Shown: positions 11,682-47,372 of the stretch, piece after piece | Layout: each line of letters begins with the position of its first letter | How positions within the stretch are numbered: the first letter of the stretch is position 1 | Assembly: GCA_965219415.1 (NCBI GenBank) | Contig: CBDCNP010000002.1 | Span: 3,040,001 to 3,104,000, forward strand | DNA length: 64,000 nt | Reading direction: 5' to 3' | From: Candidatus Marinacidobacterales bacterium | Lineage (GTDB): Bacteria > Acidobacteriota > Vicinamibacteria > Marinacidobacterales > DATDRI01 | Notes under the pieces: generated by a model | What the model was told of the DNA's origin: nothing | What the model saw: only the letters and a program-made list of their open reading frames with translations | Database searches by the model: none | Position numbers and translations under genes: made by a program

Positions 11682-11685
<4 letters not shown>
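11487..11685 (-). pseudogene. N-terminal fragment of the fourth gene of the helicase-methylase operon (possibly HNH nuclease)
   Basis: GTG start overlaps the methylase TGA; EECRKAAWQNGYRR... cut by the MITE; nuclease call is from recollection of similar N-termini only. Confidence 0.45.
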
Positions 11686-15683
<3,998 letters not shown>

Positions 15684-15686
15684 GGC

Positions 15687-18452
15687 TCACGCCTCGCTCG
15701 GCAACAGAACGAAGAGGCCGATGACGTCAGGGGGCTGGACGCCTTCCACGCTCACGCGCGATGCCGACCCTGCAGCCGCCCGCAGTCTGGCATGGTCTTC
15801 CGCAAGCTTATCAGCACGCACGCGTACGAACTCGCCGATGGGACCGGCCACGAGGTCGGGCAGATCTTCCTGCGCGCGTTGGATGAACCGATCCCTTGCC
15901 GTTGGAGCCAGATCGGCAGCGGCGGGTGTGTCGAGGAGCGTCTTTGCGGCATCGCCCGATGCGACAATGGTGCCGTCGTGCAAGGCGACCAGCGCGGCTT
16001 CTTCCGCGAGCAGCAGGCGTTCCTTTCGGGCATGGATTGTGAGCTTGAAGCGAAGCCTCAGAAGCGCGATCCACGTCACGCGTTCAACGGCTGGGGTCGG
16101 CCATGCACCCACACGACCGATTCCAAGGTTGGCGAGCGTTTCGGGGTCGAGCGATGCCTCGACAAGCGCCTCCGCAAGGGTTGCGGTGAGGGGGTGGGTC
16201 CGTGTGAGAAGCGCTGTCCCTGAGGGGGCTGGCTCGGACGGGGCAAGCCGCACAGACCGGGACATACCTTGTTGCGCCAGGCGCTCGCGCAGTCCGGCTT
16301 CGAGCGCATGAACGTGGGCCACGAGGACCGACCTCCGTGGCTCCAGGGGGACGCCAAAACGCGACATGGTGCGTTCGATGAAGGTGCGAGCTGCCTCCGG
16401 CGAACCGAGGAAGCTTGCAGCCTTTTTCCATTCGGGAGCCACTTCTTGCGGCTTCATAGCGTTCTGGGCGAAGCGAGTCCGGGAGCGTTTCTCCTTCTCC
16501 GAGACGTCGCGCCAACGGGTTTCGACGAGGCGAGCACCGTCCTTGAGACGCAGATCGAGTGTCATCTGCTCCCTACCGCCCTGGCGAAGCATCATCGAAG
16601 CCATGAGGGCATCGGTGACGGGACCCCGTTCGTCCGGGAGGGGCACGGTCACGCCAGTCACCTTACGGATCTCCTCGGCCTTGCGCAGGATGACGTCCAG
16701 GACGGCACCGTCGATCGCGCTCGCCGGCGAGAACATCATGATCGAATGGACGAGTTCGGCGGGCTGGCCGAAACGGTCGACGCGACCCTCCCGCTGCTGA
16801 TGGCGGGTCGGATTCCACGAAAGATCGTAATGAACCACCGTGTCGAAGAGCTGCTGGAGATTGATCCCCTCCGACAAGCAGTCGGTAGCGACCAGAATAC
16901 GCTGGACCTCTTTCTCGTCTTCCGCAGGCGCCATATCGGCGACCCGGTCCCGTCGCTCGTCCGGTGTGAGCACTCCGGTGATGGCCTCGACGCGCAACTT
17001 CGGGAAGGATTTCCGCAGGCCGTTGCGAACGTGCTCTGCCGTGGCAAGATACCGGCAGAAGACGACCGGGTTCGCGCCCTTCTTCAGGAGGGGAGTGAGG
17101 ACACCGACCAGCGCCTCGAGCTTCGGATCGGGCTCCTTCGTCAGGCGTTCAGCGTGCCGGACAAGGCTCAGGAGGGCAGGATCCGCATCGAACGCCACGC
17201 TCGGCTCGATGTCGACGGCGTCCTCGTCATCCCCATCCTCGTCGTAGATCTGAGACTCTAGACGCTCGGCTTCATGCGTCATGCGGTTACGCAGTGCGCT
17301 CAGAGCTGCGGTAGGTGACGAGCCGACGCAACGCATCAATGCCAGCGTTCCCCAGAACGCCAGTCGGCGCTCGCGCTGGCTGGTTCCTGCACGGGAGACC
17401 ACGCCCAGGCAATAGTCGAGGACGGCTTCCTGGAAATCGAGATAGGCTTTTGACAGTGGATAGGGCGTCTCCGTAGTTTCGTGCTTCGGGAAGGCACGCT
17501 CCTCACCCCACTCGCCAGATACCAAATCGATTCTTCGCCGCTGCACGAAGTGACGGGCCAGGCGCTCCCGGTAACGGGCGTCGTCGAAGCTCATGGAGGC
17601 AAATTCCAGGTCGACCAGGGACAGAAGGCGTGAGAACGCCTCCTCATCACCCGAATGCGGCGTGGCTGTCAGCAGGATCATGCGCCGTTGCGGATCGCGG
17701 GCGAGACCTTGGAGAAGTGCAAACCGCTGCTGCTTACCTTTATGAGTGCCCACGCAGGCATGGGCCTCATCCACGATCACGAAGTCGGGACAAGCCCGGG
17801 CGAATCCCTCTCGCCGCTTCTCAGCCTTGATGTAGTCCAGGCTGACCACCGTGTAGGGATAGGCATCGAAAAGCGTCTGCGCAACGGGCAGGCCACGCTC
17901 CAGGCGCGCGGCCGAGCCCGATGTGACCGCTACGGGGTCAATACCGAAGCGGGATTTCAGTTCGAGCACCCATTGTTCGACGAGGTGAGGCGGGCATAGG
18001 ACCGAGAAGGCATCGACCTCGCCGCGATCCAAGAATTCCCGAAGGATGAGACCAGCTTCAATCGTCTTGCCGATGCCCACGTCATCCGCTATCAAGAGGC
18101 GAGGCACTTGGAGGCGAAGCGCCATCAGCAGCGGCACAAGCTGATAGGTCCGTGGCTCGAAAGCGAGCTGCGCTGCTGAGCGGAAAGGACCGGCCCCGCG
18201 CCGGAGAGTGAGGCGAAGCGCATCGGCAAGAAGAGCCGCCTTCGACTGGACCGTTGGAACGGCGTTTTCGGGCAGGTAGAAGCGGGCAGGTCCGACGGGC
18301 TCGCTCTCGAGCCGGGGGTCGAGAAGAACGGTGTCCTTCTCGTTGCCGGAAAGGGGGCGAAGCGCGAGTAGGTGGTCTCGGGGTGCTGGTAAGGCAACCC
18401 ATTCCCGACCCCGGGCACGGACAAGGTCGCCTGGAGCAAAGGAAAGAGGCAT
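15687..18452 (-). CDS. SNF2-like helicase (DrmD-like)
   Basis: LLIADDVGIGKT, DEAH, LLTATPH, SEGINLQ, WNPTRHQQREGRVDR. Confidence 0.9.
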   Translation of the reverse strand: MPLSFAPGDLVRARGREWVALPAPRDHLLALRPLSGNEKDTVLLDPRLESEPVGPARFYLPENAVPTVQSKAALLADALRLTLRRGAGPFRSAAQLAFEPRTYQLVPLLMALRLQVPRLLIADDVGIGKTIEAGLILREFLDRGEVDAFSVLCPPHLVEQWVLELKSRFGIDPVAVTSGSAARLERGLPVAQTLFDAYPYTVVSLDYIKAEKRREGFARACPDFVIVDEAHACVGTHKGKQQRFALLQGLARDPQRRMILLTATPHSGDEEAFSRLLSLVDLEFASMSFDDARYRERLARHFVQRRRIDLVSGEWGEERAFPKHETTETPYPLSKAYLDFQEAVLDYCLGVVSRAGTSQRERRLAFWGTLALMRCVGSSPTAALSALRNRMTHEAERLESQIYDEDGDDEDAVDIEPSVAFDADPALLSLVRHAERLTKEPDPKLEALVGVLTPLLKKGANPVVFCRYLATAEHVRNGLRKSFPKLRVEAITGVLTPDERRDRVADMAPAEDEKEVQRILVATDCLSEGINLQQLFDTVVHYDLSWNPTRHQQREGRVDRFGQPAELVHSIMMFSPASAIDGAVLDVILRKAEEIRKVTGVTVPLPDERGPVTDALMASMMLRQGGREQMTLDLRLKDGARLVETRWRDVSEKEKRSRTRFAQNAMKPQEVAPEWKKAASFLGSPEAARTFIERTMSRFGVPLEPRRSVLVAHVHALEAGLRERLAQQGMSRSVRLAPSEPAPSGTALLTRTHPLTATLAEALVEASLDPETLANLGIGRVGAWPTPAVERVTWIALLRLRFKLTIHARKERLLLAEEAALVALHDGTIVASGDAAKTLLDTPAAADLAPTARDRFIQRAQEDLPDLVAGPIGEFVRVRADKLAEDHARLRAAAGSASRVSVEGVQPPDVIGLFVLLPSEA

Positions 18453-18457
18453 TTCGG

Positions 18458-21400
18458 TCAGTCTCTCAATGCCGCAATCAATTCGGCCGGCAGGCCTTCG
18501 GATGAGTCGGCCGGCAGTTCGAAGAGGCTCCATCCCCGGTCGTCCGCTGCGGCCTTCACCGCCTCCGGAATAACGCCCGCTCTCGCGGCAACGTAATGGC
18601 TATGCCAGGTGAAAGGGAACGAAACATCGGCAAGGGTTAGATGCCTTGCGTCCGGCGCGGGGATGCCATGTTGGTCGAAGACCTCCGACCAGCCGCCCTC
18701 AGTCACAGTGCCTTCCGGCGCAGTCGCGAGCACGACCTTTCCTCGCGCGAGATCAATCAGCAGCTGCTGTACCGCGACGCTGGCACGGTCGATCAACTCG
18801 TGATCGGGCTGGTTGAAATAGGACAGAAGACAACGATAACAGCCCCGCACGCAGGCTTCTTCGCGTTCCTTGAGAAGGTTCGGGTCGTCTGCGGCGATGG
18901 CGGCATCGACCTCGTCGAAATGCATAAGTTCGAGGGCTTGCCTCGCAACCTGGTTCAGTGCATCCGGATCTTCAATCAGGCGGCTCAGCACGCCCGCACC
19001 GCCCTCGCTTGCCTCATAGGCAAAGACAGCGCGCCGGTTATCCCGGCTGGGTAATGGCTCTCCAAGAATTTCGCCTTCCTCAAGCTGGAAGACCACCGCG
19101 ATACCCCGCATCAGGGCATGCTGGAGTGTGGCGATGGTGCTCTGGTCATGGCTATCTTCGAACCGAAACAAGAGGGCATTTTTCCGATCCCGAACAATCG
19201 GAACGATCCGCACCAGCCTGACCACATCGGGCCGAACCTCAACGTCCTCTGGATCCTCATCCTCAGTCTTGGCCCAGTATCCCGTGCGGGGATCGATCAC
19301 GAATCCGAGCACAGTCTTGTTGCGGCGCCGCTTCAAGCCTTTGTTGATCCGACTTATTTCTGCGCTGTTGGCGTATTGCAATTTCATCAGAGGCGTATCC
19401 CCGACTTGAAATTCAGCCTCAGTGACCTCGACACGCCCGTGCTTTCTCGGCCATGCGAAAACGGTCTGAATCTCGAAGCCCTGGCGAATCCGTTCCTCGT
19501 CATTGGCGGTGATACGCTCGGTCGGAGCCGCTTCGACATTGTCGATCCTGAGCGTGCGTTTGACCGGCATCGCTCCAGCCATCGGGAACTGGCAGGCGTG
19601 ACAGCGCTCGACTTCGCCATTGTGAGCTCCACCACAGTTCGGACAGATCACGATGTCCTGCGTCGCAAGCTGCTGACCATCAGCGGTCCGGACTTCGGGA
19701 GGCAGTTTCGCCTTGACGACCCGAAATGCGCGGCCTTCATGATAGATGAGACTGCGAGGGCCGAACTCGGAGATAGCAAGAAAGCGGGAGCGCTGCAGGT
19801 AGGAACCCGACTTGCCCTCGCCCGGAATGAAGGCGTAAAGCGGCAGCCTGGGAAAATTGTAGCCGGGAAGAAACCCTTCGGTCGCAAGGTAACGGTAAGA
19901 ATAGAAGTCCGAGCCGTGGGTTGACTTGCCTCGTTCAAGAAGGGTGATCTGATCCGTGGCCTGCACCTGTGCAGCCTTGATCTTGCGCCGCTCAGCCCCG
20001 GATAATCCTGTCATCTCAGACCGCTTGTTGGCCTCAGACAGTTGCGTGCGCGCGGAGTGATAGAGTTCACGCCATCGGTCGAAGGCGCTGTTGAATTCGG
20101 CCGGTGCCTGGGTAGCAACCTCCTTTACATAATCATCCGGGTCATCTATCCAGAGAGGCTTCCTCTCACCGACTGATGTGAGGATTTGCTCAAGGACACG
20201 GCGCAGCCGGGCGCAGGCCTTGTCCACCAGGGCGGGATCCCGGATGACCCCCAAAATCTCGTCCCTGAGGGGATAGCCTGGTTTCTGGAGGTCGAGGATT
20301 TCGGGAATGTCCGGCGACAGAGCCAGCCCCGCTGTGGCAAGCCAGACCGCCTGTAGATGAGAAGTGATTAGGTTCTTGTTGGTGATGTCGAGTGCTGGCG
20401 GGCGAACCGCACCGGCCACCATGTCGATGCGCCGCTCGAAAAAATACTGATCATGCGGCGACTGGGCCGCACAGTAAGTGAAGATCAAGGCCGCCTGTCC
20501 TGACCGGCCCGCACGGCCCGCACGCTGCACATAATTGGCGGGCGTAGGCGGCACATTGCGCAGATAGACCGTATTCAACGCCGAGATATCGACCCCCAGT
20601 TCCATGGTCGGCGTACAGAACAACGCGGGGAGAAGCTGTTTCGACTCCCCGCTGGCCTTGATTTCGGCTTCGCACTCCGCGATCCGTGCTCGGTCGTCGG
20701 CTTCAAAGCGGAAACGCCATTCCCGCCATTCCCGTTGCTTATAGTTCACCTGGGCCGTATGCTCCCGGCTCTCCATGCCGAACAACGAGCTGGTGTTTGC
20801 CGCGAGATCGTTGGCAACTCGGGTATAGAGGCCGTGGAAGTATGGATTGCCGACAGCCGCTGCGCTCCGAGTAGCTTTACCTGCAATCAGTCGAATGGCT
20901 GAGGGTGATAGACGCCACCCTTGAAGTTCGCCTTCACTGGCCGTCAAAGTCACAAGCCCTTCTGCGGCCAGGATGCCAAGGAGATTGGTAAGGAAGGTGA
21001 TGTAGTCGTCCCCACCAAGCTTGGTACCGATGATGCTCTCATGGTTAATGAGGCGCGCTATGCGCGAACGCGGACCCGCGCGAAGGATCATCCGTTCTTC
21101 ACGCAGACTGGTAAGTTTCTTGCCAGGGGCTTTCAGGAAGAGGGTGGTGCGCTCCCGCGTTGTTTCCTTGTCATCGATGCTCCAGGGAGCCCGCAGGACC
21201 GACCGCGATCTCTGGGCAACGGTGTCCAGAACGGCAAGATCGAGCGCCTCGGTATCAACGGCCAAGCCTTCGAGCATGGCGGTTAGCAAAATCCTGATGA
21301 CCTTCTTGCGAGCGTCATGATCCAGAGAGTCGAGTTCAGGCAGAATAGCCGCGAGTCTCTCCACGTCTGCGGCCACGTCGTCGAGCCCAACGAAGTCCAC

Positions 21401-22959
21401 CTCGATCAACTTCAATGTCGACAGGTTCGGATTGGTGAAACGCCAACCCCGACGCAAATCAATCCAAACCCGGTGCGCGAGCACCTTGGCTAACGCCCGC
21501 TCTGCGTCGCTGCGAACCACGGCCCCTGCCTCCGGGCTCAACATCCAGTGCACCCGCAGCGCCGTGTTCGCACCCGTAAAACCCAAGGCCCGCTGAACAC
21601 GGAAGCCAAACTCGTCATCCCGCAGACCATCCTCACCGGCATCGAGAACAGCTCGCAGGATGGCTCCACGCAGAAGACTCACGAACAGAAAATCGTTGAA
21701 ATGCCCCACTTGAAGCGCAGCGTCCTGGCGGTTGTCGGTGAAACCAAGCAGTTTCCGCTTATCCTCGGGAACCGCATTGTTGGATTGGTTCAACCACTCG
21801 AGAGCGCTCGAGACGAGAAGCGTAGTCGCCGAGCTTCGCCCTTCGGCGGTAAGACCCGCAAGCTTGCTGCGCTCGCGCATGCGGCCTTGCGGTTCGTCGA
21901 GACAACGGGCACAAAAGCCGAATTTGCCGGGGATGAACCAGAAGGGCTCACCGTCGTCGTCGAGATGACCGCTACCCGCGACTCTCACCTTCCTCGGTAC
22001 GCGGTTTTTCCGGTACGGCCGCAGTTTGAGTAGCTCCTTGCGCTCTTCCGTCCAGCCTTCCGGAAAGTTCTCGAGCGTGCCGTCGAACCGGTAGTCCGGA
22101 TCCCCGAGACCGGCCGGCGTCAGATACCCGGCAACTTCCGTATCGTCGTCTCTCTCGATTGGAATGTCTTCGATATTGCGCGGCAAGAAGAGCACACCAT
22201 CTTCCTGCTCCGTTCTCGTCACCACGTAGTACTCCTGACCGCACTGGCGGCAGAAGCGAATGGGATAGAGCCGGGTTCCAGGAGCATCGGGATCCTCGAG
22301 CTGTCCCTCGAGCAAAACGGTTCGCTGCTTCAAACGCAATGTTGCGAAGATGTCACCTGCTCCCGCGATGAAACGATGCAGCTTGAAGGCCATAAACGCG
22401 TGTTCGCCACTACCACCCCGATCCTTATCAGGGAGGCTGATGCGAGTCAGGAAGTTCTCCAGCACCTCACTGCAGCGCTTGGGGTCGATTCCGCTATCCT
22501 GGGCAAGCAACTTGGTAGCTTCGACAAAAGTTATTGGCCGTCGCCGCTTGAGAATCTGGCCATCCTCCAGACCGAGCACCAGTTCCACCCAGACCGCCAG
22601 CGGATGAGTGACTAATTCTGCATCGGTCAGCCGTTCGGGAAGGTCTCTCTCGAGTACATTCGCGAGCTTCGGAACAACGTCTGCGCGCGCGAGACGATCA
22701 TCCGTGGCCCGGCGCAGCGACTCGTCGATCACTCCGTCTGGGCCGATCGAGGTTCCAAACAGACGTGAAACCACCTTCGAGACTTCCAAGGCACGGCTGG
22801 CACCACTGCCTTCGCTGGACATCGTCGCAGAAGTCCCTATACAAAGTGGAGCCTTGTTAGGCGTACAGCGATCGCGTAGCCGACGAACAAGAATGGCAAC
22901 GTCAGCGCCCTGGCGGCCGCGGTAGGTATGCAACTCGTCCAGGACGATGAACTCAAGCC
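18458..22959 (-). pseudogene. DEAD/DEAH helicase with C-terminal DUF1998, 5'-truncated
   Basis: Begins at LDELHTYRG (motif I missing); TPTMELGVDI; YVQRAGRAGR; CVRGCYRCLLSY zinc motif; cut by a family B IS at 22960. Confidence 0.88.
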
Positions 22960-24245
22960 TGTGCATCGTCAAAACTGCTCCGCCCACGAAATCAAGGACT
23001 TACGCTCCGCTTGAATTCCGGGCCGAAGACGGCGAAACTCCGCCGCTATGCTCAACGTTGTTGTCTTCCTCGTCTCACTTGGCGTCCGTGCCATTCGGGC
23101 GATGTGTCGGCGCCGCGCCGACCTGGTGTTGGAGAACGTCGCTTTGCGGCAGCAAGTGACGGCGCTGAAGAAAGAGCGCCCACGCCCACCGCTCGACGAC
23201 ACGGAACGGGCTTTCTGGGTTGCCCTTCGAGGTTCGTGGCCCGTGTGGGCGAGCCGCCTGCTCATCGTCCACGCGGACACCGTAGCCCGTTGGCATCGCG
23301 ACCGATTCCGACGGTACTGGGCAAAGATCTCGCAGCGCCGCCATCCCGGTCGGCCTCGGATTGATGCCGAGATTCGTCGCCTCGTCCGCACGATGGCGCA
23401 AGACGGCTGGGGGGCGCCACGCATCCATGCTGAGCTCACCAAGCTCGGTTTCATCATCTCCGAGAGCACGGTGTCGCGATACCTGCCGCGGCGTCCCGCG
23501 GAGCCCGACCAGCTGAAACGATGGATGGCTTTCTTGCGCAACCATAAAGACGATATCGCCGCCATGGATCTGTTCACCGTGCCCACCGCGTCGCTCCGGC
23601 TGCTGTACGGCTTCTTCGTCATCGAGCACGGTCGCCGGCACATCGTTCACTTCAACGCCACGTTCCACCCGACGTCTGCTTGGGTTATTCAGCAACTACG
23701 CGAGGCGTTTCCCTACGACACCGCTCCGAGATATCTCCTCTTCGATCGCGACTTCATCTTTAACGCAGCGGTCATCGAGTTCATCAAGGCAACGGGCACA
23801 AAACCCGTTCGCACTTCGTTTCGCAGCCCATGGCAAAACGGAACCGCGGAGCGGTGGGTCGGCAGCTGCCGTCGCGAGCTCCTTGAGCACGTCGTGGTTC
23901 TCGGTGCATGTCATCTCATCCGGCTCGTGCGAGCTTACATCAGCTACTATCATGAGGACCGTTGCCACTTGGGGCTGAACAAGGACACACCGAGCTTGAG
24001 AACGGTCACGCACCGACCGTCTCCTACGGCGAAAGTAGTCGCACTGCCGCGAGTCGGTGGACTGCACCATCGATACGAGTGGCGAGAGGCAGCCTGAGTC
24101 AGCTTGGTCGCTCGCGTTACTCGGCTGGTCGCCGAGAAGTTCGTCCTCAGCACCTTCCCTCGCGCCCTGACCACGCTCTCCAGCATGTGCTCGAGGGCGG
24201 TCCGGGCCCTAGAGTCCAGTCCCGGATTAATAATGATGATGGACA
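22960..24245 (+). mobile_element. Family B IS (rve integrase-type, TGT...ACA ends), intact
   Basis: Imperfect TIRs TGTGCATCGTCAAAA and TAATGATGATGGACA flank an intact transposase. Confidence 0.88.
23048..24097 (+). CDS. Integrase-core (DDE) transposase
   Basis: WGAPRIHAEL, MDLFTV, FDRD, SPWQNGTAERW. Confidence 0.92.
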   Translation: MLNVVVFLVSLGVRAIRAMCRRRADLVLENVALRQQVTALKKERPRPPLDDTERAFWVALRGSWPVWASRLLIVHADTVARWHRDRFRRYWAKISQRRHPGRPRIDAEIRRLVRTMAQDGWGAPRIHAELTKLGFIISESTVSRYLPRRPAEPDQLKRWMAFLRNHKDDIAAMDLFTVPTASLRLLYGFFVIEHGRRHIVHFNATFHPTSAWVIQQLREAFPYDTAPRYLLFDRDFIFNAAVIEFIKATGTKPVRTSFRSPWQNGTAERWVGSCRRELLEHVVVLGACHLIRLVRAYISYYHEDRCHLGLNKDTPSLRTVTHRPSPTAKVVALPRVGGLHHRYEWREAA

Positions 24246-30885: not shown

Positions 30886-31051
30886 GGTGCTTGCGCTGTT
30901 TGCTGTTGGTGATGTGTACGTATCCCTTTGCAAAAAAAGCGCTTACGCTCCATTTAGCGCACGGCGAAGGTCGTGAGCGCTATTTTGGCTGTAATTTAAT
31001 GCAGCGTAAAGTCTTAGCGTCATCTCACCAACACTTAATAGCGGAAGCACC
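30886..31051 (-). mobile_element. Family A 166-bp MITE
   Basis: Reverse-complement copy of 8200-8365. Confidence 0.85.
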
Positions 31052-32111: not shown

Positions 32112-33312
32112 CCCGTGAGGTCAAAATACTCATGCGGCTTCCCGATGGTAGAAACGTAGCAACCCGCCAAGCCGTTCACGGGAGCGCACCTTGCGCTCGG
32201 ACTGAGGTAACGGGTCGCTGGCTGGGAACAGCAGCAGATTCTCCTTGCCTTGATGATTCCTCTCGTGGTGATAGTAGACGACGTACTCCCTAAGCGCATG
32301 ACGGAGCGACTTCTCGCCGAACAGGATGAGCTTCGAGAGACATTCCTCTTTGACTGACTTCACCCAGCGCTCCGCGAACGAGTTCAAATCCGGGCTCCGT
32401 GCGGGCAGCTTGACGGGCGCGACGCCAACCGCCTCGATGGTCCGGTGGAACGACTCGCAGAACTTCGAGTCCCGGTCGTGAATGAGGTATCGGCTCGAGG
32501 ACAGAAAGCCGACATCTGCCATGGTCACGTTGCGAGCCACTTGAGTCATCCACTGTTCGTTCGGATGCGGCGTGATGCCGGCGACGTGGACTCGACGGGT
32601 AGCCAGGTGCATGAAGAACAGAACGTAGTACGTCACCAACCCGCCCTGAGTCCACACTTGCGTGGTGAAGAAATCTGTCGCCGCGAGCACGTCCATGTGC
32701 GAGCGGATGAACTCCCTCCACGTCGTGGTCTTCCGACGCTCTGGTGCGAGCGGAATGCCGTGGCGTTTCAGAATGTTACCGACGGTTTGGTCGGCCACTT
32801 CATACCCGACGTTGGCTAGCGCCCCTGCAATCCGATCGTAACCCCAGGACTTGTTCTCCTTGGCGAGACGCACTACCAGATCTTCGATGTCGGCGTCGAT
32901 TCGTGGTCGCCCTGGATACGGACGGTTCTTGGAGCTGTCGAACTTCTTCGCGACAAGCCTCCGGTGCCAACCTAGGATCGTGTCGGGATTCACGATACTC
33001 GCGATCTCATCAAGGGCTTGCTTACCCAGACGCTTTCCGAGCTCGGCCAGAGACCGCCGTTCGTCATCGGTCAGGTGCAAGCGACCCTGGAGCTGATTTC
33101 GAAGAACTCGATTCTCGGCCACAAGATACTCGTTGCGCAGGAGCAACTCCGCATCCACGGATCCTGAGATGTAGCTCAGCATGGTCTTCCAATCCATCGC
33201 AACTCCTTCCGCTGAACTGGAATACGTATCCGACAGCGATGGCGGATTCAAGCGGCCTTTGCGAAGGTGCAAACTGCTGACCCGCTGGGCGTTCGAGTAT
33301 TTTGACCAGACG
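32112..33312 (-). mobile_element. Family C IS (rve integrase-type), intact
   Basis: TIRs CCGTGAGGTCAAAATACTC and GAGTATTTTGACCAGACG. Confidence 0.88.
32130..33197 (-). CDS. Integrase-core (DDE) transposase
   Basis: WGYDRIAGAL, ATDFFT, IHDRDSKF, SPDLNSFAERW; start MDWKT follows an AAGGAG RBS. Confidence 0.92.
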   Translation of the reverse strand: MDWKTMLSYISGSVDAELLLRNEYLVAENRVLRNQLQGRLHLTDDERRSLAELGKRLGKQALDEIASIVNPDTILGWHRRLVAKKFDSSKNRPYPGRPRIDADIEDLVVRLAKENKSWGYDRIAGALANVGYEVADQTVGNILKRHGIPLAPERRKTTTWREFIRSHMDVLAATDFFTTQVWTQGGLVTYYVLFFMHLATRRVHVAGITPHPNEQWMTQVARNVTMADVGFLSSSRYLIHDRDSKFCESFHRTIEAVGVAPVKLPARSPDLNSFAERWVKSVKEECLSKLILFGEKSLRHALREYVVYYHHERNHQGKENLLLFPASDPLPQSERKVRSRERLGGLLRFYHREAA

Positions 33313-34049
33313 ACCAATGGACCCCGTCCTGTGCCAAAACTCGGCCCAGCCGGCATTGACGAAAGAACTGCGCCTGTCCCTTCCATAAACTCGAGCTGTA
33401 TGAGATTGGCGAATTTCCTGCAACCGGAATGCTTTGGTCGTCTTCATGTAGGACGTTTTAAGAGCCGGCGTCGGCTCTACTCAACAACCTGTCCCGGCTT
33501 CAGGAAGTTCAGGTTCGACGTGAGGCCGCGCGTAAACGTCTCTGGGTCCACGTAGGCGCAATGCCAGCACAGCTTGCGCGCTCGAACTCCTAAAACGTCC
33601 CGGCGCGCCGGTCTTGATTTCGTTTGTGTTTTTGGACACGACGGGGTGCCGATGAAGATCGAGCCAAGCAGCTGGCCGCAGCGTTGGCGGCCCTAGACAG
33701 TAACGATGAGAACTCGCTCATTAATCGACTGGTGCGCGAAATCCATCGCGCACGACAGGCGGTGCTGAACGCGGTGAACCCCGACGCTCTGGATTCACCC
33801 ATGGCGATCATAAAGGCCACGCTCACCGACCTGCTCAACGAGCACGCGAGGTCGCAAGCCGAGATGCTGCGGGCCCAGCAGGACCAGAGCCGCGTGTCCG
33901 CTCACACCCGTACCTCGTTGTATCTATCAAGAGCAACTATTTACTTGACTAACCACCTTCTACGATCCTCCCTATCTCGATAATGGTAGGAACTCGACTC
34001 CCAGGCCCGGCGCGTAATAACCTGTAGAATCGAAAGGATATAGATACCC

Positions 34050-34779
34050 ATGCGTTTCGTGGCTATGGTGTTCGTGGCGCTCATGGGCTGGACAGCCGAA
34101 GCGGACGCTACGCTGATTTTGGTGTACCGATCCAGCGACGCGATCATCATCGCCGCTGATAGTCTCAGGACGATCGGCACTGACCCGCCCAGACAAGTTC
34201 ACGTGTGCAAAATCCGAAACTTTGGGGACGTAGTGTTCGCTGCTAGTGGCACCAGCTATTCACGAGGGCCGTTGTCACTCGACGCGATCACCGCAGAACT
34301 TCACCGGGCCACGTATCCCGTCTTCTGGGACCGGATCAAAATGTTCGATTACGTGGTAGATACGGACTTCAAAAAGGTCCACAGCAGGAGGGTAACGACT
34401 GCCCATCGTGAGAAGCTAGAGCCTGAAATCCTAACGTTTGAGTACATTCTCGGCTTCATACTGGATGGTCGACTGGTCGCGTTGACAAGACGACTCACAA
34501 GTTCGCGCGCCGGCGTGGATTTTGGTACGCGGGAAGTCCTATCCGTGGGCACCGTCTTGCCATTAGGACAACCCGACATTCTGGACCATCTCTCCGATGT
34601 CGACCTTCCCGACGGTGCAGACAATACGGACCTGCCCACACTATTCACGGCGACCATTAACCACCAAGCGCAACGCATGCCGACGAAGGTCGGCGGCCAC
34701 GTCGACATCATCCGCCTGGCCGCCGATGGTGCCGAGTGGCTACAGCGCAAGGATCAGTGCGCCGCCCAAGAGGCCAGAC
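34050..34779 (+). CDS. Signal-peptide-bearing proteasome-beta/HslV-like Ntn hydrolase; native 3' end replaced by IS sequence
   Basis: After ADA| the sequence has T1...AAD17S...CK34I...ASG47 and a C-terminal VGGHVDIIRL. Confidence 0.6.
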
Positions 34780-34969
34780 CCCGTGAGGTCAAAATACTCA
34801 TGCGGCTTCCCGATGGTAGAAACGTAGCAACCCGCCAAGCCGTTCACGGGAGCGCACCTTTCGTGGTGATGGTAGACGACGTACTCCCTAAGTGCATGGT
34901 GGATTCAAGCGGCTCTTGGAAAGGTGCAAACTGCTGACCCGCTGGGCGTTCGAGTATTTTGACCAGACG
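34780..34969 (-). mobile_element. Family C internally deleted mini-element
   Basis: Both family C TIRs joined through short internal pieces. Confidence 0.85.
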
Positions 34970-35093
34970 ACATGGCACACCAGTCTTGATACAGCCAGTC
35001 TCATAAAGGAGGCGCACAAGCAAAGAGGGAACGGGCATTAACTCCGATGAACTTGTGTAATTGTTAGCGGCGGCTGTAAATTGCACATTTGTG

Positions 35094-35260
35094 GGTGCTT
35101 GCGCTGTTTGCTGTTGGTGATGTGTACGTATCCCTTTGCAAAAAAAAGAGTTTACGCTCCATTTAGCGTGCGGCGAAGGTCGTGAGCGCTATTTTGGCTG
35201 TAATTTAATGCAGCGTAGAGTCTTAGCGTCATCCCACCAACACTTAATGGCGGAAGCACC
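35094..35260 (-). mobile_element. Family A 166-bp MITE
   Basis: Copy of 30886-31051. Confidence 0.85.
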
Positions 35261-35468: not shown

Positions 35469-35778
35469 CACCCATTGGCGATCGTCGAAAACCCCGTAGC
35501 GAAACTTACCAACGCCACACCTCACCGATGTTCTCGATCCGGGCGAGGCGGTCGCTTGATCTGATAGCATGATGACGAAGTGGAGGAGCGCCGTTCTTTT
35601 TCCACGGACCTAATACGTATCCGACCGCGACGGCGGATTCAAGCGGTCTTTGGAAAGGTGCAAACTGTTAACCCGCTGGGCGTTCGAGTATTTTGACCAG
35701 ACGGGCGAGACTCAACTAAAACAGTCTCCGGAAAACCCGGAGCGGTTCCAAAACAGACAGCGAGGAGAGGAGAGACAA

Positions 35779-36300
35779 ATGCAGCCACTTTACGATCCCG
35801 AGGGTGTTCGGCCCATGTGGGAGGAGCTTGCCCAATGCGGGGTCGAGCCCGTGCAAACAAGAGAGAACGTCGACGAGGCCTTGAAGAGGTCTGGGACAAC
35901 GCTCGTGGTGGTGAACTCGGTTTGTGGATGTGCTGCCGGCTCGGCGCGCCCGGGTGTGACTCGCGCCCTGCAACACAGCACAATTCCCGATCACCTCACG
36001 ACGGTCTTCGCCGGCGTGGACCGTGAGGCCACGGAGCGCGCCAGAGAGCACATGGTCGGCGTTGCTCCGAGCTCACCTTCGGTGGCCCTTTTCAAGGACG
36101 GCGAGCTCGTGCACATGCTTGAGCGACGACATATAGAGATGATGAACGATGAAATGGTGGCGCAGAACCTGACCGAGGTTTTCGACAAGTACTGCTCTCG
36201 ACAGGGACCGTCCGTCCCCAGAGAAGAGTACGAGAAGGTGGTGCACGCGCGGCAGTGTGGCTCCTCGGTGCCGTTGTTCGATCCCCTCTCAAGCCACTAG
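35779..36300 (+). CDS. BrxA/BrxB-family bacilliredoxin
   Basis: VVVNSVCGCAAGSARP, TVFAGVDREAT, PSSPSVALFKDG; GGAG RBS. Confidence 0.9.
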   Translation: MQPLYDPEGVRPMWEELAQCGVEPVQTRENVDEALKRSGTTLVVVNSVCGCAAGSARPGVTRALQHSTIPDHLTTVFAGVDREATERAREHMVGVAPSSPSVALFKDGELVHMLERRHIEMMNDEMVAQNLTEVFDKYCSRQGPSVPREEYEKVVHARQCGSSVPLFDPLSSH

Positions 36301-39460: not shown

Positions 39461-41413
39461 GTGAAGATTTCGACGATATTGGATCACATCGACAGTGGGC
39501 ACATGGCGCTCCCGGAATTCCAGCGCGGTTATGTCTGGAACCGCGATCAAGTGCGCGGCTTGTTTGATTCCCTCTATCATCGGCACCCGGTCGGTGGGCT
39601 CTTGGTCTGGGCCACGGAGGCGAAAACGGCTGTCCATCGCGGCGACCGTCCGGTCGCCGCGGGCATTGTCAAACTGCTGCTGGATGGACAACAGCGCATG
39701 ACATCGGTCTATGGCGTCGTACGGGGTAAACCGCCAAAGTTCTTTGACGGCAACTCCCGGGCGTTCACGGGGCTTCGGTTTCACCTCGGCACCGAAACCT
39801 TCGCCTTCTATCAACCTATCAAGATGCAGGACGATCCCCTGTGGATCGACATGACAGAGCTGATGCAGAGAGGCACGGAGGGTCTAGGTAGCTTCGTTGC
39901 CCAGCTTGCCGCGAATCCCCAGCACGCGGCTCTGGTCGGTGATATGGCTGGACGCCTAAGCAAAATCCTCAGCATCACCGACATCGACCTGCATGTCGAA
40001 GAGGTGACAGGTCCAGGCAAGACCCTCGATATCGTTGTCGACATCTTCAACCGTGTGAACAGCGGCGGCACCAAGCTGTCCAAGGGCGATCTAGCCTTGG
40101 CGAAGATTTGCGCGGAATGGCCAGACGCCCGCGAATCCATGAAGGCCAAGCTGCAAGAGTGGAATGCCGCGGGGTATCATTTCAATCTGGACTGGCTACT
40201 GCGGTCGATAAACACGATTCTGACCGGCGAGGCCAAGTTCAGCTTTCTCCATGACAAGGGCGCGCTCGATATCCAGGACGGGTTGAAACGCGCCTCGACG
40301 CACATCGACACGTCACTAAACCTTATCGCCGGGCGGCTCGGCCTCGACAATGATCGGGCCCTCTTCGGTCGCTTCGGCCTGCCGGTTATGGTGCGTTACA
40401 TGGACAAGAAGAGCGGTTCGCTGGACGCGAAAGAGCGGGACAAGCTGCTCTTCTGGTTCGCGCAGGCGGGCATGTGGGGCCGGTTCTCGGGATCCACCGA
40501 AACGGTCATCGACCAGGACCTCGCTGCCCTAGAAGGACCGAAAGGTGGACTCGATGCGCTGATCGAGCAATTGCGCCTGTGGCACGGGAGTTTGCGGGTT
40601 GAGCCTGATCATTTCACTGGCTGGAGCCTCGGCGCACGGTTCTATCCGGTGCTATACATGCTTACCCGCATGGGCGACGCCCTTGATTGGGGCACCGGCT
40701 TGCCGCTCAAGGCGACCTTGCTCGGCAACATGAACCGCCTGGAGGTGCACCACATCTTTCCGAAGGCGAGGCTCTATGAGCGCGACTATAGGCGGGACGA
40801 AGTGAACGCGCTGGCGAACTTCTGCCTCCTGACCAAGGACACTAACTTGGATATCAGCAAGCGCTGGCCCGAGGAATACTTTGCCGAGGTGGAGGCGAAG
40901 CATTCCGGCGCGCTCGCCTCCCAATGGATTCCCATGGATCCAGCGCTCTGGAAGATCGAACGTTATTTCGACTTCCTCGAAGCACGAAAAGCACTGCTGG
41001 CGGAGGAAGCCAACAAGCGATTCGAAGAGCTGCTGCACGGCGATACGCACTGGCTTTCTGGCATAACAGAGGTTCCATCAACGCCGTCGCCAGCGGTGGT
41101 CGGGGGGATCACGGGAGAGACCGAAGAGGCGGAGCTGAAAGCCGTAAACCAATGGGTGGAAGAACAGGGGCTCCCAAGCGGACATGTGGCCTTCGACTAT
41201 GCAGATGCCGAAACGGGAGTCCAGAAGGCCGTCTTTGATCTGGTTTGGCCGGAAGGGCTCCAGCCCGGCCTGACGGAACCGGTAGCGGTGCTGCTGAACG
41301 AAACCGCGGAGGTTTTGGCGCTGGCGAGTACTGCTGGCTTTCACTGTTTCACCACGGTTGCAGAATTTCGCACTTATGTCGAAGCCGATATCTTAAAACT
41401 TGAGACCGTCTGA
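39461..41413 (+). CDS. GmrSD-like protein (DUF262 + DUF1524/HNH)
   Basis: LPEFQRGYVW, LLDGQQR, IFNRVNSGG, EVHHIFP, LANFCLL. Confidence 0.88.
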   Translation: MKISTILDHIDSGHMALPEFQRGYVWNRDQVRGLFDSLYHRHPVGGLLVWATEAKTAVHRGDRPVAAGIVKLLLDGQQRMTSVYGVVRGKPPKFFDGNSRAFTGLRFHLGTETFAFYQPIKMQDDPLWIDMTELMQRGTEGLGSFVAQLAANPQHAALVGDMAGRLSKILSITDIDLHVEEVTGPGKTLDIVVDIFNRVNSGGTKLSKGDLALAKICAEWPDARESMKAKLQEWNAAGYHFNLDWLLRSINTILTGEAKFSFLHDKGALDIQDGLKRASTHIDTSLNLIAGRLGLDNDRALFGRFGLPVMVRYMDKKSGSLDAKERDKLLFWFAQAGMWGRFSGSTETVIDQDLAALEGPKGGLDALIEQLRLWHGSLRVEPDHFTGWSLGARFYPVLYMLTRMGDALDWGTGLPLKATLLGNMNRLEVHHIFPKARLYERDYRRDEVNALANFCLLTKDTNLDISKRWPEEYFAEVEAKHSGALASQWIPMDPALWKIERYFDFLEARKALLAEEANKRFEELLHGDTHWLSGITEVPSTPSPAVVGGITGETEEAELKAVNQWVEEQGLPSGHVAFDYADAETGVQKAVFDLVWPEGLQPGLTEPVAVLLNETAEVLALASTAGFHCFTTVAEFRTYVEADILKLETV

Positions 41414-41535: not shown

Positions 41536-42078
41536 CGTCTGGTCAAAATACTCGAACGCCCAGCGGGTCAGCAGTTTGCACCTTTCCAAGGGCTGCTTGA
41601 ATCCGGCATCGCGGTCGGATGAGTATTCCTTCCGGGTGCACAGTTCGTTGCCTGCAGCTCGCCCCGCAGCCGGATTTGAGTCAGCCGTGCCCACCCCAGT
41701 GGGCCTGTCGTCCGCCACCCGCAGCCCAGGGATCGGAAGCCAGCCTTGGCGCGAAATACCCTCGATTCTGAGCGGATTCCAAGGGCGTCTAAGCTGCTGA
41801 TTTGTGGTCTATTTCAAAAGGGCCGAGTTTTGGCACAGGACGGGAGCGGTGGGCGTGGGCGCTCTTTCTTCAGCGCCGTCACTTGCTGCCGCAAAGCGAC
41901 GTTCTCCAACACCAGGTCGGCGCGGCGCCGACACATCGCCCCAATGGCACGGACGCCAAGTGAGACGAGGAAGACAACAACGTCGAGCATAGCGGCGGAG
42001 TTTCGCCGTCTTCGGCCCGGAATTCAAGCGGAGCGTAAGTCCTTGATTTCGTGGGCGGAGCAGTTTTGACGATGCACA
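41536..42078. mobile_element. Stack: family C left end, family D end (to 41843), family B left end (to 42078)
   Basis: Identity to the ends of the intact elements. Confidence 0.8.
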
Positions 42079-46963: not shown

Positions 46964-47372
46964 CGTCTGGTCAAAATATTCGAACGCCCAGCGGGTCAGC
47001 AGTTTGCACCTTTCCAAAGGCTGTTTGAATCCGTCATCGCGGTCGGATACGTATTCCAGTTCAGCGGAAGGAGTCGCGATCGACTGGAAGACCATGCTGA
47101 GTTACGTCTCAGGATCCGTGGATGAGGAGTTGCTCCTGCGCAACGAGTTGTAATCCGCAAAAAAGAAGACCGGACCCGTTACCGTGCGAGTGGCCGTCCT
47201 GTGCCAAAACTCGGCCCTTTTGAAATAGCTCATAAATCAGCAACTTAGAGTCTGTGTTTGTGGCCGTGCCCAGGGCCGGGCACGAACGAACGACGAAATC
47301 ATGCAGGCATGGTGCCGGCAGACCGGAGATCAATCAAGTTCGGTGCGCGCGGATGAATAAATAGAAGGCACA
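46964..47372. mobile_element. Stack: family C left end with transposase start, E end remnant, D+F chimeric mini-element (47194-47372)
   Basis: DWKTMLSYVSGSVD fragment; recurrent end motifs. Confidence 0.8.

Follow-up and report, generated by a model that had tools for sequence, protein, structure and literature searches.

The window analysed here is a stretch of 64,000 nucleotides from a Candidatus Marinacidobacterales bacterium of the phylum Acidobacteriota (GenBank assembly GCA_965219415.1, contig CBDCNP010000002.1, positions 3,040,001 to 3,104,000 of the forward strand). At position 34050 of this window an open reading frame (ORF) begins in which a hydrophobic leader of 20 residues runs directly into a threonine, followed by the residues of a proteasome-type active centre. 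Comparisons of sequence and of modelled structure support placing this gene in an uncharacterised branch of the proteasome-like Thr1 hydrolases whose members are exported. The branch is a real, unnamed and patchily distributed family of N-terminal nucleophile (Ntn) hydrolases resembling proteasome beta subunits, Anbu and HslV, and we think it probable that these enzymes are exported. With similar confidence the leader and the model lead us to regard the gene product as a Sec-exported Thr1 hydrolase without a conserved ATPase neighbour.

Proteasome beta subunits and HslV use Thr1, Asp17, Lys33 and Gly47. An earlier description of the gene, made from the letters alone and called here the sequence-only reading, had placed a leader ending in A-D-A directly before the threonine, followed by T1, D17, K34, G47 and a VGGHVD motif, and all of these were read where it had put them (Table 1). 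The ATG at 34050 is the first start codon after the preceding stop. The leader has the n-h-c layout of a signal peptide, with MR as n-region, FVAMVFVALMGW as h-region and TAEADA as c-region, so that A-D-A stands immediately before Thr21.

Fold, family and leader

The AlphaFold2 model, based on 26 sequences, has a mean predicted local distance difference test score (pLDDT) of 80.2 and a predicted template modelling score (pTM) of 0.80, and is poorly defined only in the leader (residues 1-15) and in one loop (179-185). Both helix pairs are present, and the C-terminal end consists of two strands and a cysteine-bearing tail. Foldseek returned at least 500 matches in the PDB at E<=1e-3, and among the matches listed (36) all were 20S proteasome subunits or Anbu. 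In the VIA re-alignment to beta subunits and Anbu, Z-scores of 15.3-14.2 were obtained, with a root-mean-square deviation of 3.0-4.2 Å over 169-185 residues. Residue 21 of the model falls on residue 1 of the mature chains in this register (5lox, 5nyw, 8ysx, 5lex and others), and in propeptide-bearing mutants model residues 15, 16, 18, 19 and 20 pair with -5, -4, -2, -1 and 0.

A structure search independent of Foldseek, which covered 48,161 chains, gave the same picture, ranks 1-20 being proteasome-like throughout (Z 15.3-9.5). Beta subunits scored highest (Z 15.3-13.4), together with Anbu (Z 14.1), followed by alpha subunits (12.6-9.7), HslV and mycobacterial PrcB (11.7 each) and BPH (11.2 and 9.6). 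Connectase (9.5 and 8.9) also has its residue 1 under model residue 21, while other Ntn proteins, including PurO, acid ceramidase, NAAA, penicillin and cephalosporin acylases and bile-salt hydrolases, did not exceed 9.3. In most of these other Ntn chains, too, model residue 21 lies on, or within one residue of, the first (nucleophile) residue. The sequence-only reading had proposed an Ntn fold, and the combination of AlphaFold and Foldseek predicts exactly that, and specifically a proteasome-like one.

Sequence profiles point the same way. A profile built from 101 members (A2) reached BPH at E 3.6e-6, followed by beta subunits and by HslV at about 5e-4; its Thr falls on residue 1 of the chains hit, and hhalign against six HslV of the same phylum gave a probability of 94.5% with Thr, Asp and Lys in register. 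Both structural and profile alignments therefore put the Thr, or Ser, of the family at mature residue 1, the predicted N-terminus. The Pfam model PF00227 matches 22 of the 101 members weakly (best E 6.4e-5) and does not match the window protein at E<=10, scores that stay below the gathering threshold and thus mark a remote homologue outside the Pfam model as built. On profile and model evidence, the protein is a remote but genuine homologue of the proteasome-like family.

The family itself has no name. Of the 28 close relatives returned by a word-indexed search, not one is named or has a Pfam domain. When 1.84 billion cluster representatives were searched exhaustively with HMMER, 183 scored at E<=1e-3, of which 29 reached <=1e-10 and 8 reached <=1e-30. 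Where the sources name these relatives, the name is 'hypothetical protein', and the nearest clusters in the ESM Atlas are likewise unnamed and rich in Acidobacteriota; one distant member is labelled Chitinophagaceae. NCBIfam models recognised none of the 101 members except for two marginal archaeal beta-subunit matches. Scans with another alignment (A1) gave two partial matches in metagenomes (residues 3-67, 36% identity) and none in the viral set, and blastn in 'distant' mode of 33400-35100 against a plasmid collection gave no match.

Conservation was read from an alignment of the window protein with all fetched relatives of 200-400 amino acids (154 rows, shorter fragments and the read-through form being excluded), sequences that diverge down to about 20% identity. 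The sequence-only reading had staked itself beforehand on Thr, Asp and Lys being kept in homologues, and the Thr21 column holds Thr in 147 members and Ser in the other 7, with Asp37 and Lys54 present in all 154. Nearly as constant are Cys53 (153/154) and Ser38 (151), followed by Cys237 and Trp230 (147 each), Gly67 (145) and Gly173 (142), and the motif V-G-[GP]-P-[IV]-D at residues 214-219 is conserved across the alignment. As the catalytic motifs are the best-conserved columns of the family, they are not a chance pattern.

Export was judged by explicit rules, namely a Kyte-Doolittle peak of at least 1.6 over 10 residues, a Lys or Arg before it, and the -3/-1 rule after the h-region. The segment before Thr has a median length of 24 residues; its hydrophobic peak reaches 1.6 in 143 of the 154 members, and 135 have Lys or Arg ahead of the hydrophobic stretch. 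The 11 members below the peak, and two flagged only for a very short segment before Thr, are for the most part gene calls that were truncated; P0075, which is among the 11, has instead a 136-residue extension before Thr. Position -1 is occupied by Ala in 109 members, Gly in 23, Gln in 10, Ser in 5 and other residues in 7, and position -3 by Ala (66), Leu (29), Val (14), Ser (12), Gly (9), Thr (6) and others (18). A small residue (Ala, Gly or Ser) thus stands directly before Thr, after a hydrophobic leader, in 137 members, a result in favour of the sequence-only reading. The -3/-1 rule accepts a site directly before Thr in 121 of the 154 members and fits upstream sites only in 22, the remaining 11 being without an h-region. 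In the leader of the window protein there is neither a lipobox cysteine (no Cys in residues 1-52) nor a twin-arginine motif (a single Arg in the n-region).

The native part of the window protein contains exactly two cysteines, as had been noted, and both are kept in 146 of the 154 members; among the eight without the full pair, six have an aberrant C-terminus. In 132 of 154 members the mature part carries an even number of cysteines, and this, together with the conserved pair, fits disulfides in an oxidising, extracytoplasmic location. In this phylum, the true HslV and 20S beta genes have no such leaders and no cysteine before the Lys. As far as computation goes, fold, conservation, leader and cysteine pair all speak for the extracytoplasmic Ntn enzyme that the sequence-only reading had suggested.

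The state of the window copy

The ORF does not end in a stop codon of its own. It reads into a miniature inverted-repeat transposable element (MITE)-like repeat apparently derived from an insertion sequence (IS) of rve type (Table 1), of which the first part (34780-34863) is 99% identical to 32112-32195, a segment that shares with the rve-type transposase ORF only the first four bases of the latter (its stop-codon end) and is for the rest situated immediately beyond it. Within the repeat, 34857-34903 matches 32259-32305, and 34878-34969 matches 33221-33312 and 35612-35703. Solo ends related to the rve-type IS were seen at 33221-33312, 35612-35703, 41536-41629 and 46964-47057. Since the C-termini of most close homologues lie 3-9 residues beyond Cys237, the junction cost the gene no more than a few native codons. 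The homology to a 98%-identical orthologous locus (L004) ends at 34781. Repeat match, homologue ends and this homology stop show the junction at 34780 to be real and to lie beyond the last conserved element, in agreement with the earlier proposal that an IS end replaced the native stop there.

Together with a truncated ORF upstream, the gene forms a unique module of 1.15 kb, which is 99.2% identical over 1148 nt to L004:5587-6732, the homology stopping at both ends in both genomes. In public DNA runs the module assembles as its own contig at a depth of 12-31, whereas contigs over 34775-34969 have depths of hundreds to thousands and the flanking repeats of thousands; compared with the depth of the gene, this indicates that the MITE-like element has been massively amplified.

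This setting raises the question of whether, irrespective of what the family does in other genomes, the window copy no longer yields a working protein and is a dead fragment caught between copies of the IS. We consider this rather unlikely, while recognising that a good deal speaks for it. The module is flanked on both sides by amplified repeats, the native stop has been lost and 52 foreign codons gained, the upstream ORF is fragmentary, the genome has two further copies that are cut short or interrupted, and a scan of 33500-35200 for sigma-70-like promoters found none, against 1.0 expected. However, the 243 native codons are free of frameshifts and internal stops and are 98-99% identical to full-length proteins of other assemblies (P0002, P0003, L004), all catalytic and structural residues are kept, and a family that normally ends so soon after Cys237 has little to lose at this junction. 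A weaker point in favour of a living gene is a 347-nt contig over 34329-34675 in one metatranscriptome library, near-identical to the window (6 differences, 98% identity). In the RNA run X20 the repeat is covered and the gene is not.

Several points weigh against the reading of this gene as an exported Thr1 hydrolase, and it is convenient to take them together. Some concern this copy. Its foreign tail of 52 residues brings two extra cysteines, and the IS-tailed protein may be impaired. The two further copies in the genome are both degraded (Table 1), and since they are truncated or stop-bearing the lineage may be losing the gene. The 347-nt contig is only a weak hint of transcription, and of a close relative, as such libraries can contain DNA. 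Others concern the family. On its own, the window protein has no match in Pfam, NCBIfam or PDB sequences. The catalytic Lys is at mature position 34, not 33, with Asp17 and Gly47 at their standard numbers. Equivalents of Ser129, Asp166 and Ser169 were not identified; Gly173 and the V-G-[GP]-P-[IV]-D motif lie in the corresponding regions. Lastly, the -3/-1 rule is permissive. The site before Thr is the sole fitting one in just 17 members, and the other 104 of the 121 fitting Thr sites have an upstream alternative, the window protein itself fitting at A16-E-A18|D19 as well as at A18-D-A20|T21.

Proposed freeing of Thr1 and possible activities

From the leader, the fold and the cysteine pair we infer the following course of events. 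The 20-residue leader would carry the protein through the Sec pathway across the inner membrane. Its removal would leave Thr21 N-terminal, either by signal peptidase I (SPase I) cutting at A20|T21, or by a cut at A18|D19 and subsequent self-trimming of two residues. The free amino group and the hydroxyl of Thr21 would then act with D17, K34 and the backbone at Gly47, as in the proteasome, while in the oxidising envelope a disulfide would link C33, beside the catalytic Lys, to C217 of the C-terminal tail. Working without ATP or a conserved unfoldase, the enzyme would cut, and possibly transfer, amide bonds of peptides or of small envelope or extracellular substrates.

That signal peptidase directly exposes Thr1 in the window protein is, on the leader sequences, the somewhat favoured route. 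Small residues at -1 and -3 are anchored on the Thr across the family, which suggests that SPase I usually cuts exactly there. The alternative is that the protein is exported and Thr1 is freed by autolysis, with signal peptidase cutting upstream (A18|D19) or the leader staying as a membrane anchor, and for the window protein this seems to us unlikely. It would suit the 22 members with an upstream site only, where after such a cut Thr would still be preceded by 1 residue (14 members) or by 5-19 residues (8), and the window protein, whose rule-fitting sites are at -7, -2 and 0. Classical beta subunits cleave themselves at Gly-1|Thr1, Gly being typical at proteasome autolysis sites, and the 23 members with Gly at -1 include several with an obvious AxA site 5-9 residues upstream; in the 10 members with Gln at -1, this residue directly follows an AxA-type site. 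By analogy, the Gly-1 and Gln-1 members, and a lipobox-like one, would trim a short remnant themselves. Against autolysis in general stand the Ala at -1 in 109 members with small or aliphatic residues at -3 anchored on the Thr, which is what SPase cleavage at Thr leads one to expect, and the c-region up to the Thr, whose length of 5-8 residues is typical.

Two forms of maturation may thus exist side by side. About a fifth of the family seems to retain a short residual propeptide, so exposure by SPase alone is likely for the clade of the window protein and not general. In a FastTree phylogeny of 148 mature domains, from which six rows with aberrant C-termini were left out, the state at -1 changes at least 32 times and many branches are unsupported, meaning that the two modes are interleaved and do not form separate clades. 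The tree therefore gives no ground for claiming a single switch from autolysis to exposure by signal peptidase.

Related forms of leader were also seen. The metagenomic member P0097 has a lipobox-like LSIGC, a 9-residue linker and Gly-Gly|Thr, possibly a lipoprotein form that needs autolysis. More divergent, leader-bearing proteasome-like ORFs occur in other Acidobacteriota genomes (L018:1198-2019 and L014:790-1734, both on the minus strand). In the L018 protein a canonical ASA|Q site precedes QIDRERG|T, and Val replaces the Cys before the Lys. Their sequences suggest that these ORFs represent related exported subfamilies with a propeptide remnant ending in Gly-1.

With regard to activity, the preferred reading of an exported hydrolase competes with a transpeptidase or ligase like connectase, acting on specific peptides, secreted or of the envelope, to join or remodel them. 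Both the fold and Thr1 are common to connectase and our family; connectase is monomeric and sequence-specific (PMC7980362), and our family has no conserved partner. However, the likeness of the model to beta subunits and Anbu (Z 14-15) is much higher than to connectase, no connectase-like insertion is evident, and the model has both helix pairs, while connectase lacks H1/H2 (PMC8665760). We regard a ligase as quite improbable. A catalytically inert structural or binding protein that keeps the Ntn fold, a use for which proteasome alpha subunits are a precedent and to which the failure to identify Ser129, Asp166 and Ser169 equivalents might point, is very improbable, as Asp, Lys and Thr/Ser, invariant at the exact catalytic positions in 154 of 154 members down to about 20% identity, are hard to explain without catalysis. 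Oligomerisation is not addressed by our homodimer prediction for the mature domain, which scored 0.00 without controls and is uninformative on this point.

Genomic setting and known relatives

Table 1. Positions of the gene, its parts and the features around it (window positions unless another contig is named).
Feature	Position	Strand	Remarks
ORF	34050-34937	+	295 codons: 243 native (34050-34779) and 52 read into IS-derived repeat
Shine-Dalgarno-like GAAAGGA	34032-34038	+	contains AGGA; 11 nt before ATG; read from sequence
Leader, residues 1-20, MRFVAMVFVALMGWTAEADA	34050-34109	+	Sec/SPase I-like signal peptide
Thr21 codon ACG	34110-34112	+	putative N-terminal nucleophile Thr1
Native mature domain, residues 21-243	34110-34779	+	predicted proteasome-beta-like Ntn fold
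Asp37	34158-34160	+	mature D17; Ser38 next
Cys53	34206-34208	+	mature C33
Lys54	34209-34211	+	mature K34
Gly67	34248-34250	+	mature G47
VGGHVD	residues 214-219	+	Trp230 also in native domain
Cys237	34758-34760	+	mature C217
MITE-like repeat, ~190 bp	34780-34969		apparent internal-deletion derivative of rve-type IS (both ends); supplies 52 codons and TGA 34935-34937
Unique 1.15-kb module	33634-34781	+	truncated upstream ORF and gene; repeats on both sides
Upstream ORF, 119 aa	33624-33983	+	97% identical to orthologous locus; no Pfam or PADLOC match
rve-type transposase	32130-33386	-	mobile-element gene
DrmMI-like methyltransferase	11682-15683	-	PADLOC/Pfam
DpdE/DrmD-like helicase	15687-18533	-	PADLOC/Pfam
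DruE/DrmA-like helicase with MZB domain	18458-22987	-	PADLOC/Pfam
TmtA-like ORF, 909 aa	28247-30976		matches only middle of TmtA models (profile 131-856 of 1486)
ORF with full Disulph_isomer domain	35650-36300		PF06491, E 1e-56
GmrSD/HEC-05-like nuclease	39461-41413	+	PADLOC/Pfam
Degraded gene copy (L002/L029)	G000:C3:4257334-4257939		residues 40-237, 49% identity, internal TAG; rve-type transposase gene adjoins
Degraded gene copy (L003/L030)	G000:C3:4137107-4137271		fragment, residues 191-237

The distribution of the gene is patchy. A genome scan found two loci, one 98% identical from a Candidatus Marinacidobacterales metagenome-assembled genome (MAG) and one 31% identical from a Vicinamibacterales MAG. 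Matches at E<=1e-5 are present in 23 of 401 genomes of the phylum, and strong full-length matches (E <= 1e-53) occur in only 7, the genome of the window included. One of the 23 has a partial match with a stop, and 15 have weak matches. Where ORFs were read at the weak loci, six were HslV, three 20S beta-like and two the divergent leader-bearing proteins described above; the remaining four loci have no recognisable proteasome-like ORF. HslV proper is encoded in the phylum by separate ORFs of about 180 amino acids that have no leader.

The six full-length homologues in other genomes have no neighbouring gene in common, apart from TrkA and lipoyl synthase in two genomes that belong to one genus. 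No AAA+ gene lies beside the window gene or beside these six homologues, and hence there is no HslU-like neighbour.

In the window, the gene sits in a defence island riddled with IS and MITE copies, where an IS5-type transposase gene accompanies the rve-type one. Several of the genes around it are damaged or have uncertain ends. The upstream ORF starts at a repeat boundary (about 33634-33645) and is thus probably the C-terminal remnant of a larger gene. The 3' end of the TmtA-like ORF enters the repeat 30886-31051 (second copy 35094-35260), and this ORF is probably truncated at both ends by mobile elements. For the Disulph_isomer ORF, the listed start lies inside the repeat 35612-35703 and residue 48 is the first that the Pfam match covers, which makes a true start further downstream probable. 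A role of the gene product as a known defence component was considered in view of the island and dropped, as the protein matches no PADLOC or PHROGs family; we take the defence-island setting as incidental, a product of IS activity.

The closest structural relatives are the 20S beta subunits (PF00227; MEROPS family T1), with about 170-185 residues aligned at 3-4 Å and the Z-scores given above. Shared with them are Thr as first mature residue, Asp17 and Gly47 at the same numbers, and the C-terminal strand region GG-x-[VI]-D-[IV]. Unlike them, the family has its Lys one position later, a hydrophobic n-h-c signal instead of a cytoplasmic propeptide, a conserved cysteine pair, and no alpha-subunit or ATPase partner. 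Anbu is cytoplasmic and begins at Thr after removal of Met. The model compares well with it (PDB 5lox, 5nyw, 5nyj and 5nyg; Z 15.2-14.1, model residues 21-236 on chain residues 1-210), and Anbu, too, is bacterial and has no known ATPase partner. It differs in its long C-terminal H5 helix, (PMC8665760), in place of which our family has, in the model, two strands and the cysteine-bearing tail.

By sequence profile, BPH and HslV are the best matches. They are shorter (about 175-200 amino acids) and have neither leader nor cysteine pair, and HslV is a cytoplasmic partner of HslU. Penicillin G acylase, cephalosporin acylase and the N-acyl homoserine lactone (AHL) acylases PvdQ and MacQ share with our family both export by signal peptide and an N-terminal nucleophile, and model residue 21 lies on residue 1 of their beta chains; the Z-scores are only 8.4-6.5, however, and these are much larger proteins of other Ntn families. 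Periplasmic Ntn acylases free their nucleophile by internal autoproteolysis of the precursor, not at the signal-peptide junction.

The proteasome-like proteins of prokaryotes have been surveyed before. HslV and BPH were there placed in group I of the proteasome-like homologues, and 22 new subfamilies of divergent prokaryotic proteins with conserved Thr1/Asp17/Lys33/Gly47 were described, propeptides being said to be confined to beta subunits and HslV (Fuchs, Alva & Lupas 2021, PMC8665760; main text and one supplement). By term, the same main text and supplement contain no mention of signal peptides, secretion, periplasm, export, Acidobacteria or cysteines (PMC8665760). Our family might coincide with one of these 22 clusters, its export having gone unnoticed. 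The literature searched contained no paper describing exported or periplasmic proteasome homologues, and a term search of a 2026 review of proteasome assembly (PMC13022661) found no mention of them.

What the finding means depends on how far it extends. We regard it as an evenly balanced proposition that a whole family of proteasome-type Thr1 enzymes works outside the cytoplasm with its activation coupled to export, SPase I replacing the autolytic propeptide in most members and a short Gly-1 or Gln-1 remnant being self-cleaved in the others. To our knowledge, the characterised relatives of the proteasome (20S, HslV, Anbu, BPH and connectase) are all cytoplasmic and have Thr1 freed by Met removal or propeptide autolysis. 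If the proposition is true, proteasome-like catalysis reaches the ATP-free cell envelope or exterior, stabilised by a disulfide beside the catalytic Lys, and its substrates may be envelope peptides, signals or the products of competitors. An exported branch would show this catalytic machinery serving a compartment without ATP or unfoldases, and would be a natural zymogen switch handed to the general secretion machinery. It would also offer a small, probably partner-free Thr1 enzyme for biochemistry and biotechnology, as connectase did.

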